NCBI GenBank assembly: GCA_030604855.1 | Contig: JAUVVC010000007.1 | Location: 30,001 to 62,000 of the forward strand | Direction: 5' to 3' | Source of the DNA: Erysipelotrichaceae bacterium | Lineage (GTDB): Bacteria > Bacillota_I > Bacilli_A > Erysipelotrichales > Erysipelotrichaceae | Length of the DNA stretch: 32,000 nucleotides | Part shown: in pieces, positions 3,889 through 32,000 of the stretch | How the letters are laid out: each line of letters starts with the position of its first letter | Numbering within the stretch: the first letter of the stretch is position 1 | Made by a program: the position numbers and the translations under genes | The notes under the pieces: generated by a model | The model's input: the letters and a program-made list of their open reading frames with translations, nothing else | What the model was told of the DNA's origin: nothing | Database searches by the model: none

Positions 3889-4254
3889 CTATTTCTTCTT
3901 GTTCGCTACAGTACGACGTGGTCCTTTACGCGTACGAGCATTCGTACGTGTTCTTTGTCCACGAACTGGCAAACCTTTACGATGACGTAAACCACGGTAT
4001 GAACCGATTTCCATCAAACGTTTGATGTTCAAGTTGATTTCACGACGTAAATCCCCTTCAACTTTAATATTATCTACTTCCTTACGAATCGCGTTGACTT
4101 GATCATCACTTAAGTCTTTTACGCGGATGTCCTCAGAAATTTGTGTAGCTTCCAAAATCTTCTCAGCCAAAGGACGGCCGATTCCATATACATATGTCAA
4201 TGATACAACCACACGTTTATCGCGTGGAATATCAATCCCTGCTATACGAGCCAT
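3889..4254 (-). CDS. rpsM: 30S ribosomal protein S13
   Basis: Track ORF trimmed to [15 protein letters not shown] (ATG at 4254), preceded by GGAGG 11 nt upstream. 121 aa. Confidence 0.93.
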
Positions 4255-4272
4255 GTTTCTATGTTCCTCCAA

Positions 4273-4386
4273 TTATCCTTGACGTTGTTTGTGCTTAGGA
4301 TTCTCACAAATAACCATTACGCGACCATTTCGTTTGATGATCCGGCATTTGTCGCATATGGGTTTGACTGATGGTCTAACTTTCAT
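4273..4386 (-). CDS. rpmJ: 50S ribosomal protein L36 (zinc-ribbon type)
   Basis: Below the ORF-track size cutoff. Manual translation: [44 protein letters not shown] upstream. Lies between infA and rpsM as expected. Confidence 0.93.
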
Positions 4387-4404
4387 ACTTGTCACTCCTT
4401 GACA

Positions 4405-4623
4405 CTACTTGTGTCTAAATGTAATTCTCCCACGTGTTAAATCATACGGTGAGATTTCAACGGTTACGCGGTCACCTGGTAAAATGCGAATGTAGTGCAT
4501 GCGGATTTTACCAGAAACGTGGGCTTTAAGCATATGCCCGTTGGTCAATTTCACGTCGAAGGTCGCATTCGGTAGAACTTTCTCTACCACGCCTTCAATT
4601 TCAATAACGTCTTGTTTACCCAT
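4405..4623 (-). CDS. infA: Translation initiation factor IF-1
   Basis: 72 aa. [22 protein letters not shown]...[25 protein letters not shown]. Confidence 0.95.
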
Positions 4624-5389
4624 TCAGTAAAGTTTCCTCCTTTGAGATGGTGGTTAAGATTTCGTAACCTTCCTCCGTAACAAGTACGGTGTGCTCATAA
4701 TGAGCCGCTAAGGATCCATCTTTGGTTACGACTGTCCAATCATCTTCCAATACTTTGGTAAAAGGTTTACCACGATGAACCATCGGTTCAATCGCCAGCG
4801 TCATCCCAGCTTTGAGAATCGGCCCTTTACCTTTTGGTCCATAATTGGGAATGGCTGGATCTTCATGTAGATTTGCGCCTATTCCATGTCCGGTGTATTC
4901 ATAGGGCACCGAATATCCATAAGAATAGACGTACTCTCCAATCGTGTTGGAGATATCCGACAAATGTACACCTGCCTTAACCATTTTTAAGCCTTCATAG
5001 AGACTCTGCTTGGTGACATCCATCAGGTGCTTCGCTTCTTCGCTTACTTCCCCGACGGCGTACGTCCATGCACTGTCGCCATGATAGCCCTTATAACAAG
5101 CGCCGATATCTACGGATATGATGTCGCCTTCTTTCAAAGCATACTTGGATGGAAACCCATGGACCAATACTTCGTTGACCGAAGCACAAATCGCGGCGGG
5201 GAAGCCATTGTATCCCTTAAATGAAGGTGTTGCCTGATGATCACGAATCACTTTCTCGACAATGCGATCCAGCTCTCCGGTGGTGACACCAGGTTTGATT
5301 GCCTCAGCCACCGCTTGGTGAGCCAATGCAACAATTTCTCCTGCTTTACGCATGAGATCGATTTCACGCTTCGATTTGCTTGTGATCAT
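4616..5389 (-). CDS. map: Type I methionine aminopeptidase
   Basis: 257 aa with the pattern of metal-ligand motifs ([35 protein letters not shown]). 1-nt TAATG overlap with adk. Confidence 0.93.
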
Positions 5390-6036
5390 TACAACTGCCC
5401 CAACACCTTATCAATGTCATGAAATACATCATCGATCGGTCGCGAAGCGTTGATATCGAACACCAAGCCCTTCTTAGAATAGAAATCCAATACAGGTTGC
5501 GTCATGGTCACATGTTCCTTCAAGCGGACTGCGAGTTGTTGAACGGTATCATCTGAACGATGAACCAATTCACCACCACATACATCACACACACCCGAAA
5601 CTTTCGGAGGTTGTGCTTTGATGTGGAAGATCGAGCCACACTTTTCACAAACACGGCGTCCCGTGACACGTTCAGCCAAATCATCCAACTGTACTTTGAG
5701 GTTGATAACCGCTTGTACAGGTCGATCGATTTGAGCCGCTATATCCTCAAACGCTTCTGCTTGAACCAATGTTCTTGGATAACCATCTAAAAGGTAACCC
5801 TTTAAGCAATCTGGTTCAAGCAAGCGTTCTTGAATCATTCTGATCGTCACATCATCTGGTACTAAACGACCTTCATCGATATACTTACGCGCTTCCAATC
5901 CTAAAGGTGTATTTCCATACATATGCGCTCGAAACATATTCCCAGTGGAAATATGCGGGATCGAGTACTTTTGAACAATCAAATGTGCCATCGTTCCTTT
6001 GCCGCTACCGGCCGCGCCCATAATCAGTATGTTCAT
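5389..6036 (-). CDS. adk: Adenylate kinase with zinc-binding lid
   Basis: 215 aa. P-loop GAAGSGKGT. Lid CEKCGSIFH...CDVCGGEL (Cys4). Confidence 0.95.
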
Positions 6037-6045
6037 ACATGCCTC

Positions 6046-7335
6046 CTAATTGATGAAACCTCGGTATACCTTTTGTGTCATCTGTCCTTCCAAATCTTTC
6101 ATTGTTTCCAATGCGACCCCTACGACGATGATGATCCCTGTTCCACCCACCGAAATGGTATTTGGAAGATCCGTGATCATCGGAAGTACATAAGGCAACA
6201 CGGCAATGAAGGTTAAGAAGAGCGCACCTAATACTGTAATACGATTCAATACTTTGGATAGATATTCCTTCGTCTCCGATCCCGGACGAATACCAGGAAT
6301 GTATGTCCCTTGTTTACCCAAGTTCTCCGCAATCTTATCAGGATCAACCTGCAAGTTTGTGTAGAAGAAAGTAAATACGACAATCAAGATGGCATAGATC
6401 GACAAGCCGAGTGGCTTTTGGAAATTGAACACATCATTGAAGAAGGTATACAGACCTTGCGTCTGAGAAAAGAAACTAAATGCGGTTGCAGGTGCCGTCA
6501 TGACTGCCGAAGCAAAGATGACTGGGATGACACTTGCAGAGTTGATCTTCAAAGGTAGGTACGTCACATCGTTCTTACCCTTACGCAGATTGCTCGACGT
6601 GTATTGGATCGGAATCTTCCGTTCAGCCTTCTGCATGAAGATGACCAAGATGATGATCGCCAGATACATGAAGGTAAACAATAAGAAATTGATCACACCA
6701 CTGAAGAGGGCTGCATTGCTACTTGTATCCACCATGGTGTTGAACAAGTTCGCAAATGTGAAGGGAATTCGTGAAACGATCCCAGCAAAAATGATGATCG
6801 AGATACCGTTACCGATACCGAAACTCGAAATACGGTCTCCAATCCACAATAAGAACATCGTACCCGCTGTTAGAACAACAGAGACGTAAATGAAATTGGA
6901 AACACTTGGATCTTGAAGCAATCCATAATTCACATCAAAGGCATAGGTCAGTGTGAACGCTTGGAACAAGGCCAAGAACACAGCCGCATAACGGGTGATC
7001 TTGTCAAGTTGACGTTTACCTTGTTGACCTGACTTCGCCATTTCGGTAAGTGCAGGCACAACATCCATTGCTAAGAGTTGAATGATGATGCTAGCTGTGA
7101 TGTAAGGACCGACCCCCATTGCGAAGATCGAGAAGTTTTGCAACGCTCCACCACCCAACAGGTTCATGATCCCTAGTACGGAGTTATCCGCAACACCCGC
7201 CAACAATGCGTCTGTATCGACCAAAGGCACAGGAATCCCTGCACCCAGTCTGAATACAAACAACATTGCCAACGTGAAGAAAATCTTCTTTCGAATATCT
7301 TTTTGCTTGAACAGATTGACGAATGTCTTGATCAT
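6046..7335 (-). CDS. secY: Preprotein translocase subunit SecY
   Basis: Multi-TM protein between rplO and adk. Start moved to MIKTFVNLFKQKDIRKKI (ATG 7335), which has a GAGGT SD 9 nt upstream and does not overlap rplO. The track start at 7371 would overlap rplO by 35 nt. Confidence 0.9.
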   Translation of the reverse strand: MIKTFVNLFKQKDIRKKIFFTLAMLFVFRLGAGIPVPLVDTDALLAGVADNSVLGIMNLLGGGALQNFSIFAMGVGPYITASIIIQLLAMDVVPALTEMAKSGQQGKRQLDKITRYAAVFLALFQAFTLTYAFDVNYGLLQDPSVSNFIYVSVVLTAGTMFLLWIGDRISSFGIGNGISIIIFAGIVSRIPFTFANLFNTMVDTSSNAALFSGVINFLLFTFMYLAIIILVIFMQKAERKIPIQYTSSNLRKGKNDVTYLPLKINSASVIPVIFASAVMTAPATAFSFFSQTQGLYTFFNDVFNFQKPLGLSIYAILIVVFTFFYTNLQVDPDKIAENLGKQGTYIPGIRPGSETKEYLSKVLNRITVLGALFLTFIAVLPYVLPMITDLPNTISVGGTGIIIVVGVALETMKDLEGQMTQKVYRGFIN

Positions 7336-7336
7336 G

Positions 7337-7777
7337 CTAGATGACCTCAGCTTTTCCGCCTGCTTGTTCAATCAACGCGACAGCTGACTTAGAAAATTTG
7401 TTTGCTTTAACAGTCAACTTCTTTTCTAAAGTCCCAACGCCTAAAATTTTGATTCCGTCCAATTCTTTCTTAACCAAACCAGCTTCAAACAACAAAGTAG
7501 GTGTGACTTCAACGCCATCTTCGAAACGGTTCAACGCTTCGACATTGACGATTGCATATTCAACGCGTGTGAAATTGGTGAAACCACGTTTTGGGATACG
7601 ACGGAAGATCGGTGTTTGACCACCTTCGAACCCTAACGAAACACCACCACCTGAACGTGCTAATTGGCCTTTATGACCTTTACCAGCTGTCTTACCTTGA
7701 CCAGAACCCTGACCACGGCCTAAACGCTTGCTATCTTTACGAGCACCTTCGTTATACTTTAATTCATGTAACTTCAT
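7337..7777 (-). CDS. rplO: 50S ribosomal protein L15
   Basis: 146 aa. [38 protein letters not shown]. Confidence 0.95.
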
Positions 7778-28819: not shown

Positions 28820-31800
28820 TTAATAGTCGGCTTCTTCTTCCTTACCATCACGGATCATTTCCGGAGGTAAGCTCTGTTCTTCCATCAGTCTGCGATTGAC
28901 TTCTTCACGAGCTTCTTTCATTTCACCAGCAAGTTCAATGATTTGCGTCGTACTTTCACGTTCCGCATGAGAACCTGTACCCGCAGGAATCTTCTTACCG
29001 ATGATGACGTTTTCCTTCAGACCCAATAAGTGGTCAACTTTGCCCTTGATGGACGCATCGGTCAATACCTTGGTGGTTTCTTGGAATGATGCGGCAGATA
29101 GGAATGAATCCGTTTCAACCGAGGACTTGGAAATACCCAACAGTACAGGTTTGAAGGTTGCTGGACGACGACCGCTTAACAAGGCTTTCTTATTAAGGTT
29201 GGTGATGTTCGGCAAACTGATCTGAACGCCTGCGCTCATGTGTGTATCACGACCATCCGTGACCACGACCTTACGCAACATTTGTTTGATCATGACTTCA
29301 ATATGTTTGTCAGAGATTTCAATCCCTTGACTTTGGTATACTTTCTTAACTTCTTTGAGGATGTAGTTTTGAACGCTGAGTACGCCACCGACTTCTAAGA
29401 GTTCCTTAGGATCGATATGATCCTCAGTCAACTTGTCACCGGCTTCGATCTCAACACCAACCTTGATCCAAGGACGGATGTGCTGGGTCAAGGATGCGAA
29501 GTGTTCAACACTTTCCTTTTCATTCGTGATGACGATACGCATCAACAAGTCTTTGTTACCGCGACTTTCCGTACCATCTTCAGGTGTCTTGAAGGATTCC
29601 AAATCACGGATCTTCTTGAACTTCTGTTCTTCCGTGTTCACAACCGACAAGAGATAGGAGTAGATATTCGGGTCAACCCCTTCAATCGTAGTGATCGTAC
29701 CAGAGATCTTCGCTAAGAGCGCAGGTTTCTTCGGACGACGGGCTTCAAAGAGTTCTTCGACACGCGGCAAACCTTGTGTGATATCGCCCCCTTCAGCAGC
29801 AGCGACCCCACCGGTGTGGAAGGTACGCATGGTTAACTGAGTACCTGGTTCCCCAATGGATTGAGCAGCCATGATACCAACAGCCTCGCCCACTTCAACG
29901 ATCTTACCCGTTGCCATGTTGCGACCATAACACTTCTTACATACACCGTAGATGGATTCACAAGAGAACACATTACGAATGAGGACCTTCTTGACACCTG
30001 CTTCAACAATTTGGCGAGCGATGTCGTCGGTGATGAGTTCATCACTTTCAACCAAGACTTCCTGGGTTGTTGGATGAATGACATCTTCCTTGGCATAACG
30101 TCCAACCAAACGGTCGTAGATGCCTTCAATAACGGAGTTGGTCTTACGATCCATGATGTCTTCCACAACATACGCACGATCGGTTCCACAGTCTTCTTCA
30201 GAGATCAAGAGGTCTTGCGCAACGTCAACCAAACGACGAGTCAAGTAACCCGATTCTGCTGTTTTCAAAGCGGTATCGGTCAAACCTTTACGGACACCGT
30301 GCGTCGAGATAAAGAATTCGGAAACGTTCAAACCTTTACGGAATGAGGAGTAGATCGGGACTTCGAAGATCGAGGTCGCGTACTTACGTTCACGCAAGGC
30401 TTCAACTTTAACGGCATCACGGACTTCGGTTCCACCTTGATCTGGCGTGTAAGCCACTTCATTGTCTTTGACTTCCAAGAACTTCTTATAGGAGATCTTT
30501 TCAGAATCAATGAGTTTCTTCGCCAAATCATAGAACGAATCATCCAAATCCTTATTGTTCACACGCAATTGTGCGATTTCATCTGAATGCAATGTTTGTA
30601 AAATCTTATCGGACTCCACCTGAATCAACTTGCGTGTCTTCGCGATGAGTTCACGACGTTGCCAACGAGCGATGTGCTCAGTGGAAACTTTGTCTTCTTC
30701 AATCAAACCTTCCGCTACATTGCGGATGAGTTCCATGTTTTTGCCTTTGGCTTCTGCTAGGATCTCAGTTTGAATGCCGCTGAGTAAGCCACGGATTTCG
30801 GCCGCATCGAGCGCCAACATCTCCATGACCAATTTCTTGGTGTCCAAACGATCTAAGAAAGCTTGATCGATACGATTTGCCTTTAGTAATTCCAAGGCGA
30901 TCGAAGGGAACTGCTTACGTTCGATTTGTTCGAGATCGTAAGACTCTTCGACCAAGGCCAAGACTTCACGAGCACCTTCTTCAAGGTAACTTACAGTTTT
31001 GGAAACCATTTCCTTGAGTACGACATACTCTTCGAGTTGGACTTGGGTGAAGCGGCCATCTTCGATGATCGCGTCACTAATACGCTTATGGGAATCTGCT
31101 TTCAGCTTCTTATCTTTGTGTTCATTCAATGAGATGATTTCTTCATCACTGAGTAACTCAATAATGAAATCATCTTGATTCTTCAAACCATCCATGATGA
31201 CTTTACGAAGTTCTGCCTTTTGGAGAAGTTCATCATCCAAACGCAAATCATTCATCAAAGTTTCAATCAATGGCTTCAATTCTTCAGAACGTTGTTTCTT
31301 ACCCTTGATGTTCTTCAGGATGAGTTTATCTTCATCACTCAAGAGGTCCATGATTTCAGGCGTTGCCAAAGCAAGGTGCTCTGCCAACAAGGAAGACTTC
31401 TCTTTGCGAATATCGCTTTCGAGTTTCTCCAACATCTGCATGGAAACACGGTTCTCATCCACCAAGTGTTCCGCAAGTACATTCACATATTCATCACGAT
31501 TCGCACGTTTCAGACGTAAACCATCCAATTCTTTCTGCGTGGTGATGTTTTTAATGAAATTGCTTTCTTTTTCTAGATGTTTCTTGATGAACTCCGGAAC
31601 GATCAAGAGCATGTGTGCTTGTTGGACCTTATCCAAGTTCAAGGCATTGTCATTCATCAAGCTCAACGCAAAGTTGCGTAGACCTTCATGGTTCTTGGTG
31701 CGATTGATGGATTTGAGTTCCAACTTTTGATCCGGCGTCAAAAGGTCGACGATCATAGGGGATTCTTTACTCAAAAGCTCCATAACCGTTACACGCAATT

Positions 31801-32000
31801 GACGTGAGAGTTCTGCTTTATGCAAGGTTTCTTCCGTAACACGGTTTTCTTCTACCAAGCGACGGCCTAAAGCTTGCAGGACTTCTGCTTTTTCCTTCAA
31901 ATCACGAATGGACTTGATGGTTTTGATTTCTGCAGAGGACAATTCAGCGTAGATTTCTTTGGATTCTTCTTTGAGAAGTTCCAAGATGAGACTTTGTTTC
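28820..32000 (-). CDS. rpoC: RNA polymerase beta-prime subunit, C-terminal portion carrying a very large non-canonical helical-repeat region (frame open to the window end)
   Basis: Canonical beta-prime from ...[51 protein letters not shown] (bridge helix), through [21 protein letters not shown] (trigger loop) and [18 protein letters not shown], to the stop. The track's initial M is a TTG codon; the codons before it (..KQSLI) are also open to position 32000. Confidence 0.9.
30467..32000 (-). repeat. At least 8 diverged tandem repeats of ~56-68 codons inside the rpoC frame
   Basis: Units begin near [132 protein letters not shown]. Each ends in an L..L.eenR/K.....L.KaEL-like helix. Similarity shows at the protein level only. 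Confidence 0.75.

Follow-up and report, generated by a model that had tools for sequence, protein, structure and literature searches.

Our analysis of a 32,000-nucleotide (nt) stretch of DNA from an Erysipelotrichaceae bacterium (contig JAUVVC010000007.1; hereafter, the window) shows that its rpoC gene, which encodes the beta-prime subunit of RNA polymerase (RNAP), has, at the tip of the F-loop and shortly before the bridge helix, an in-frame insertion domain that is specific to its lineage. The complete insert comprises 633 amino acids (aa), of which 542 are visible in the window (30374–31999, minus strand), with junctions defined against the Bacillus subtilis subunit (6wvj_D). It is organized as a series of tandem units that are predicted to be alpha-helical, it matches no family, and it is conserved and under selection in related genomes. 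Taken as a whole, our explanation of this region is, in our judgement, probable: its nature as an insertion domain is established with high confidence, whereas the way of working proposed below is tentative.

Insertion domain in the F-loop of beta-prime

The C-terminal 1059 codons of rpoC occupy positions 28820–32000 of the minus strand, with the stop codon at 28820–28822; the frame is open throughout (28820–31999) and continues beyond the window edge, with its 5′ end outside. Window residues 543–1059 are beta-prime (Pfam RNA_pol_Rpb1_5, E = 1e-64; NCBIfam rpoC equivalog TIGR02386, from profile position 714), and these 517 C-terminal residues form an ordinary beta-prime end that terminates at the rpoC stop. 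They begin with the C-terminal strand of the F-loop and the bridge helix (30212–30373; aa 543–596, including FRKGL and ending in VDVAQD) and include the trigger loop (29738–29869; aa 711–754), which has no SI3-type insertion. A first-pass annotation, made from the window's letters and its open reading frames (ORFs), had described the roughly 540 residues before the SIFEVPI segment as unlike beta-prime. These are 542 aa for which we found no match in Pfam, NCBIfam or the sequences of the PDB, the last searched with single profiles and with a repeat profile.

The part of the gene that lies beyond the window could be read from relatives. A word-indexed search with the insert returned four partial proteins from metagenome-assembled genomes (MAGs; P0001–P0004, 78–84% identity), two of which show the N-terminal junction as FTQLAGTRGLMGKP followed by FKAATTGD, and scanning the species representatives of GTDB yielded six Erysipelotrichaceae MAGs, one of which is a closed chromosome of 2.0 Mb (OW818653.1). 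In each of the loci L004, L006 and L007, a single 1928-aa ORF encodes the whole subunit, with beta-prime regions A–E upstream of the insert in the same frame, as the first-pass annotation had anticipated for an extra region within rpoC. The exact 1928-aa sequences fall into two clusters at 90% identity, with 60 and 73 members (ENA, JGI, NCBI and Logan), and this length is called in most of the listed members of both. Aligned to B. subtilis beta-prime, L004 residues 2–778 correspond to 3–754, 1412–1644 to 757–984 and 1701–1881 to 1001–1179, and the 633 residues 779–1411 stand in place of B. subtilis residues 755–756. The Rpb1 domains thus follow in order on one polypeptide, collinear with the solved beta-prime (the window carries Rpb1_5); the catalytic NADFDGD region of L004, NADFDGDQMAVH, lies outside the window, and the bridge helix and trigger loop lie inside it. 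The first 91 aa of the insert (N-terminal linker, unit 0 and the start of unit 1) fall beyond the window and are known from these relatives, bearing out the suspicion that the extra region was larger than the window displayed.

The insertion site lies between GLMGKP and SIFEVPI, at the F-loop tip and about 20 residues before the bridge helix. A run of 633 aa in frame between conserved, collinear blocks is well above the approximately 50 aa that mark an insertion. The first-pass annotation had also set the region apart from SI3-type trigger-loop insertions, correctly, as the host is the F-loop just N-terminal to the bridge helix. The upstream motif in the window's clade is TRGLMG. The proline of GLMGKP directly before the insert aligns with P750 of Escherichia coli beta-prime (MRGLMAKPDGS), and the segment after the insert corresponds to E. 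coli residues 753–944. In Thermus numbering, by our own alignment, the insertion point presumably falls between P1048 and S1049, which we take to be the middle of the segment 1044–1056. Deletion of this central F-loop segment (1044–1056) reduces catalysis about 70-fold, acting via the trigger loop (PMC3874190).

In composition the insert differs from its host: the 633 residues (72.9 kDa) have an isoelectric point (pI) of 5.1 and a net charge of −24, against a pI of 8.7 and a net charge of +12 for beta-prime outside the insert. The visible part is rich in Leu (15.3%), Glu (12.7%) and Lys (10.5%) and contains no Cys. Its guanine–cytosine content (42.7%, against 46.9% for the rest of rpoC and 44.1% for the window) is unremarkable; it fits a Glu-, Lys- and Leu-rich protein and gives no evidence of recent transfer.

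Two explanations that would dissolve the insertion into an artefact or a pair of genes can be weighed at this point. A chimera or mis-join in the window's contig is hardly credible. MAG contigs do often break inside the region (P0001–P0004 are partial) and one chimeric fragment, P0005, exists, but at least 12 loci that were assembled independently, spread over four clades and counting the closed chromosome among them, show the same junctions and frame, as do the 133 sequences of the two clusters. The window itself aligns without gaps, at 92% nucleotide identity, to three loci (L003–L005) across the whole rpoC fragment, and on this basis it is a further species of their clade. These recurrences effectively refute a mis-join. 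Neither chimerism nor a stop followed by a new start was found, the two outcomes that the first-pass annotation had named as ways for its reading to fail; every element of its interpretation that could be checked was borne out. Beyond the breaks in P0001–P0004, public MAG contigs often end, or carry gaps, inside the insert, and P0001, binned as ‘Ignavibacteria’, is probably a mis-binned Erysipelotrichaceae contig.

The second explanation is that beta-prime is made here as two polypeptides, split in or near the insert by an internal start, proteolysis or a gene split, with the repeats as terminal extensions. Some public records do call two or three genes (ORFs 4164–7523 and 7358–9541 in L009, three pieces in L010 and two in L001), and natural splits of large RNAP subunits occur elsewhere, such as cyanobacterial gamma/beta-prime and archaeal A′/A″ (PMC11515920). 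However, the break in L001 is a scaffold gap of 10 N (L001:1178–1187), in frame and exactly at an ENRV motif; the frameshift in L009 (7200–7360) is read through in one frame by the independent, 88%-identical P0126 and by L015; and L010 (ERZ21878447 ctg45463l) is an error-prone long-read assembly with frameshifts in rpoB, rpoC, rpsL and rpsG. We therefore rejected a true gene split in L009 and L010 as frameshift artefacts. Most listed full-length members have 1928 aa, a single ORF in dozens of assemblies, and the rpoC fragment of the window contains no in-frame Shine–Dalgarno sequence with a start codon. Two polypeptides are thus very improbable, although post-translational cleavage would still be compatible with a single ORF. 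As a matter of annotation, the two or three ‘genes’ that pipelines call for this beta-prime in some records are owed to frameshifts.

Tandem repeat architecture

The full insert is composed of nine units of 57–74 aa between a 21-aa N-terminal linker and a 26-aa C-terminal linker, and the window shows units 1–8, each of 57–67 aa. To assess each unit, a hidden Markov model (HMM) built from the other units of the complete insert of a 97%-identical relative was scored against it and against shuffled sequences. Units 0–5, 7 and 8 reached 10.5–36.6 bits, against shuffled maxima of 5.9–12.6. All units lie on the minus strand. Unit 1 (31787–31987; aa 5–71) scored 32.5 bits against a shuffled maximum of 9.2, unit 2 (31589–31786; aa 72–137) 36.6 against 8.7, unit 3 (31391–31588; aa 138–203) 20.1 against 8.7, unit 4 (31199–31390; aa 204–267) 33.2 against 8.9 and unit 5 (31001–31198; aa 268–333) 16.0 against 6.7. 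Unit 7 (30629–30829; aa 391–457) followed with 15.1 against 5.9 and unit 8 (30452–30628; aa 458–516) with 15.6 against 12.6. Unit 6 (30830–31000; aa 334–390) is degenerate: it keeps the period, the register and a helical character, but its 3.2 bits, against 6.9, are not significant. Of the eight tandem units proposed in the first-pass annotation, seven are therefore statistically supported and the sixth is not.

Pairwise Smith–Waterman comparison of the eight window units agrees, with a mean score of 42 against 27 ± 6 for shuffled units and with 36% of unit pairs above the 99th percentile of the null. The array ends in the C-terminal linker (30374–30451; aa 517–542, YTPDQGG...ALRERKYAT), and the linker end, RKYATS, corresponds to KKEYTSS in the short loop of relatives that lack the insert. 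At the DNA level no tandem repeat is present in the insert; only a 22-nt motif recurs, encoding an LV(D/E)ENRV turn. The unit duplications are therefore old. The unit HMM has no match in the beta-prime core, so we rejected an origin by duplication of neighbouring beta-prime sequence.

Predicted fold and homologue searches

AlphaFold models of the insert contain helix and coil only, with no strands, in agreement with the first-pass description of the repeats as all-helical. The model of the 542 visible residues, computed together with four orthologues, has an overall predicted local distance difference test (pLDDT) score of 56; the score is 65–84 for most of aa 1–330, about 50 across aa 120–190 and below 50 for aa 331–542. 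A second construct of two units (units 4 and 5), for which 20 unit pairs taken from the window and its homologues supplied the alignment, reached a pLDDT of 87.5 and a predicted template modelling score of 0.77. In this model a unit comprises four helices, and the boundary between units is spanned by a long helix, an arrangement suggestive of a continuous array more than of independent beads.

Searches for relatives of this fold returned nothing outside the family. A Pfam scan of the 20 separate unit pairs gave no recurring match even at E = 1. Foldseek found no convincing match for the two-unit model in the PDB or BFVD (best E > 1, template modelling score ≤ 0.31) and none in the PDB for the model of the whole visible insert, which is of low confidence. 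An HMMER profile of the insert, run against 1.84 billion representative proteins, returned only fragments of the same protein and P0005, the sole match outside the family, which we set aside as a chimeric fragment of 74 aa identical to part of P0001. The library holds representatives at 50% identity, in which a full-length beta-prime may be hidden under insert-less ones, whereas a free-standing homologue would show. The search for a fold is incomplete, and within it the insert is without a detectable sequence or fold relative.

Known alpha-helical repeat families (HEAT/ARM, TPR, spectrin and EF-hand pairs) gave neither a profile nor a fold match. HEAT/ARM, TPR and spectrin-like proteins are likewise built of tandem all-helical units, and here the boundary-crossing helix suggests a superhelical or rod-like array. 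TPR, HEAT and ARM units have 34–47 aa, whereas those of the insert have about 65 aa and four helices. An EF-hand-like reading of the recurrent L-x-[DE]-[DN]-[RK]-[VI]-[ST] turn was rejected: the turn is 3–4 residues shorter than a calcium-binding loop and matches no EF-hand profile.

The models and composition also bear on whether the insert is an intein or another selfish in-frame element, removed post-translationally to leave a mature beta-prime of normal size. Inteins typically reside, as large in-frame insertions, at highly conserved sites of essential enzymes, which matches the setting here, and a Ser follows the insert. On the other hand, searches of Pfam and NCBIfam found no Hint, LAGLIDADG or HNH domain; the insert begins with Phe or Ile, in place of the Cys or Ser of an intein, lacks Cys entirely and has YAT or YIP at its end, without His-Asn. 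Furthermore, it is tandemly repeated and all-helical in the models, whereas Hint domains are beta-rich. The chance that it is an intein is accordingly minimal.

Distribution and origin

The related genomes to which the first-pass annotation had pointed place the insert in four clades, with lengths of 526–634 aa. Clade A (the window, L003–L005 and L013) and clade B (L001, L006–L008, L012 and L014) have inserts of 633 aa, clade C (L009, L010, L015 and L016) has 526 aa and clade D (L011) 569 aa. The inserts of clades C and D are collinear and homologous (phmmer E = 1e-19), and those of clade C are related weakly but significantly to those of clades A and B (E = 1e-9). In the uninterrupted clade-C locus L015, the unit HMM of clades A and B finds one unit at 11.5 bits, against a shuffled maximum of 4.1.

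A bootstrapped neighbour-joining tree of 471 core columns, from which the insert was excluded, gathers all insert-bearing sequences in one bipartition (94/100), with A+B and C+D each at 100/100. The insert is absent from the 98 nearest insert-less relatives (approximately 60–74% identity in the C-terminal core), which have 14–16 residues between RGLM and IIEVPI, for example GKPTQSKSKKEYTSS; the Bacillus-type loop has 6 residues at this site. No intermediate loop length was seen among the insert-bearing sequences and these 98 relatives. The simplest history, as read from the tree and alignments, would be one insertion event in the ancestor of four clades of uncultured Erysipelotrichaceae-like bacteria, followed by divergence. 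The loop of insert-less Erysipelotrichaceae-type beta-prime (P0007, P0009, P0010 and about 95 others) is about 10 aa longer than that of Bacillus or E. coli, for example TQSKSKKEYTS, and this longer loop could be the seed into which the repeats expanded.

The insert is accompanied by a change at the base of the loop. FREGL is a near-universal motif at the F-loop/bridge-helix base and is found in 90 of the 94 nearest insert-less relatives, whereas every insert-bearing beta-prime of clades A–D has FRKGL (aa 553–557 of the window, about nt 30329–30343, minus strand). A scan of metagenomes for DNA with the FRKGL signature found six loci, all six with an insert of 526–634 aa. The replacement of Glu by Lys is probably a compensating adaptation of the F-loop base, and FRKGL in place of FREGL offers a simple signature for finding such polymerases.

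Selection on the insert

Between clades A and B the inserts are 78–80% identical and the cores 89–94%, with no insertion or deletion (indel) in 633 insert positions. Synonymous sites are saturated between these clades; for the close pair L006/L007, the Nei–Gojobori ratio of nonsynonymous to synonymous substitution rates (dN/dS) stands at 0.047 for the insert, compared with 0.024 for the N-terminal and 0.037 for the C-terminal part of the core. Conservation is highest in the central units and the N-terminal linker. Because its dN/dS is near the core values and clades A and B show no indels, the insert is under about the same degree of constraint as the enzyme that carries it, and this selection on its codons indicates, in turn, that it is translated, in one ORF with beta-prime. 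The insert has diverged fast between clades, under strong purifying selection within them. The first-pass idea of an old, selected array is sustained by the decay of the repeats in the DNA, the low dN/dS, the lack of indels between clades and the grouping of the four clades in the core tree.

These values weigh on the most serious alternative, in which repeats expanded in an insertion-tolerant surface loop and were kept as passive ballast, with no regulatory or docking role, since deletion would disturb folding of the F-loop. The length of the loop does vary between Bacillus-type and Erysipelotrichaceae beta-prime (6 against 15–16 aa), and the same domain holds an archaea-specific insertion of 24 aa (PMC11515920, Table 2). 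In addition, the inserts of A/B, C and D are very different in sequence and span 526–634 aa, and neither a partner nor a motif has been identified. However, with a dN/dS of 0.047 the insert comes close to the catalytic core, the 633 positions have stayed free of indels between clades A and B despite 20% residue differences, conservation is concentrated in the central units and N-terminal linker, and one would expect a useless addition of 73 kDa to decay in an enzyme that is both essential and highly expressed. On this balance we consider passive ballast improbable, and we prefer a functional insertion domain.

Proposed mechanism

The bridge-helix cap, with a pocket that gives onto the secondary channel, has the F-loop as one of its walls (PMC4029172). 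In a 2026 cryogenic electron microscopy study, a module of rim helices and F-loop closes on the folded trigger loop and opens again with each round of nucleotide addition; CBR and AAP inhibitors immobilize this module, with the F-loop forming their binding pocket, and the F-loop varies more in sequence than the bridge helix or the trigger loop does (PMC13342826). P750, the residue aligned with the last one before the insert, belongs to the F-loop, and the P750L substitution makes the enzyme resistant to CBR, with slower forward translocation and less pausing (PMC3959191). The equivalent region of RNAP II binds alpha-amanitin (PMC3874190).

We propose that the insert forms an acidic arm, a helical solenoid that extends from the surface of the enzyme next to the secondary channel. 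A position at the surface is inferred from the variable length of the loop and its tolerance of the insert, and a location on the secondary-channel side is plausible because the F-loop belongs to both the bridge-helix cap and the rim-helices/F-loop module (PMC4029172, PMC13342826). Anchored on this module, the arm would move together with the trigger loop during every cycle of nucleotide addition. In a manner comparable to SI3 on the trigger loop, it may serve as a load or lever that biases the equilibrium between open and closed F-loop and in this way affects elongation rate, pausing and cleavage; as a docking surface, a role that the first-pass annotation had tentatively suggested, it may couple lineage-specific partners, or the access of secondary-channel factors, to catalysis. 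A surface arm on the F-loop module that tunes catalysis, docks partners or does both is a tentative mechanism, which we place somewhat short of probable.

Several points count against this picture. The model of the whole insert is poor, and a rod, a horseshoe or beads on a string are all compatible with it. The position of the insert relative to the enzyme is deduced from its site in the sequence, and an intact single polypeptide from selection on the coding sequence; all sources are metagenome assemblies of uncultured organisms. An insert at this site could equally be tolerated neutral ballast, which the dN/dS and invariance of length argue against.

Neighbouring genes and other features

Downstream of rpoC and on the same strand, the window has ORFs of 139, 156, 692 and 394 aa, whose counterparts in related loci carry the Pfam domains of S12, S7, EF-G and EF-Tu. 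These four genes after rpoC are the classical gene order. The full order rpoB-rpoC-rpsL-rpsG-fusA-tuf is found in related loci, with the downstream genes assigned by Pfam in L001, L009 and L010 and rpoB lying upstream in L004, L006 and L007.

Three further length differences were observed in these polymerases. The tip of the trigger loop is 3 residues longer than in B. subtilis (GGVA---GDDITQG); insert-less Erysipelotrichaceae relatives have the same tip, so it is not linked to the insert. A second extra stretch, some 40 aa in length, follows closely on the trigger loop (29543–29680, minus strand; rpoC aa 774–819) and is absent from B. subtilis and from the insert-less P0007 and P0009, and shorter in clade C. 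The first-pass annotation had read the last 515 or so residues as collinear with canonical beta-prime, which holds for the 517 aa as ordinary beta-prime but overlooks these roughly 40 residues. In addition, rpoB of L004 (3207–7382 in this 97%-identical relative) belongs to a longer form of beta, of 1391–1413 aa in these organisms against about 1190–1250 in other Firmicutes, with about 110 extra residues at beta 387–552 (lobe, beta insert 5 region) and about 40 at 236–279.

Comparison with known insertions and polymerases

Lineage-specific insertions in beta and beta-prime are well known, with the nomenclature of Lane and Darst and the domains BEAN, HABAS and sLC (PMC11515920). The F-loop insert resembles those catalogued in that it exceeds 50 aa, lies between conserved blocks with collinear flanks and follows phylogeny. 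A 2024 survey by Alvarez-Carreno et al. lists seven locations of beta-prime insertions, in bD2, bD4, bD5, uD5, bD6 and bD7 (PMC11515920). In uD4, the domain of the rim helices, F-loop and bridge helix, the survey records no bacterial insertion and only the archaea-specific one of 24 aa (PMC11515920). The surveyed insert domains are HABAS (SBHM), BEAN or sLC, whereas this one consists of alpha-helical repeats. The archaeal and eukaryotic extension in uD4 (Sulfolobus Rpo1N 756–779) is universal and non-repetitive, with about 24 aa. It probably corresponds to the loop that here carries the insert, linking the RGLM-equivalent segment to the strand ahead of the bridge helix, as judged from profile coordinates and Table 2 of PMC11515920, and would then indicate that the loop tolerates extra sequence. 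In Firmicutes RNAP, the only major insert described is beta insert 5 (bioRxiv 10.1101/2021.06.06.447298). A full-text literature search for an F-loop insertion, with a scope that did not take in the Lane and Darst 2010 catalogue, found none. The insert thus represents a new site and a new architecture, at a size equal to the largest known insert, within a well-known kind of insertion.

The closest analogue is SI3 (beta-prime insert 6), which has 188 aa in E. coli and about 640 aa in cyanobacteria (residues 370–1008; Table 2 of PMC11515920); the 633 aa found here match the size of this largest known example. Both are large, lineage-restricted, in-frame insertions of repeated units on a mobile catalytic element by the secondary channel, one that switches between open and closed states with each nucleotide added (PMC13342826, PMC10895346). 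They differ in host, as SI3 resides in the trigger loop, whereas here the trigger loop is uninterrupted and the insert lies in the F-loop, about 170 residues upstream of the trigger-loop site. They also differ in fold: SI3 is made of beta-rich SBHM/HABAS domains, and the insert, according to the models, of all-alpha units (about 65 aa each), and neither sequence comparison nor Foldseek shows any similarity between the two.

The boldest version of our proposal is a new class of RNAP module, a 73-kDa acidic solenoid of an unseen fold that moves with the F-loop module and gates or replaces regulators of the Gre, DksA or HelD type. This we think rather unlikely, but if true, the enzyme would have an integral regulator of catalysis, comparable to SI3 yet of separate evolutionary origin and placed on the second mobile element of the active site. 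Because no homologue was detected among the 1.84 billion representatives, the repeat may exemplify the birth of a domain by internal duplication inside an essential gene. Natural variation of the F-loop has until now amounted to a few residues, and an enzyme with a conserved 73-kDa domain at the F-loop tip is a natural experiment on the load that this element tolerates and on the tuning of its motion. To a catalogue dominated by SBHM and BEAN, it adds an insertion site inside a universally conserved domain and an all-alpha repeat architecture, as the F-loop counterpart of SI3 in the trigger loop.

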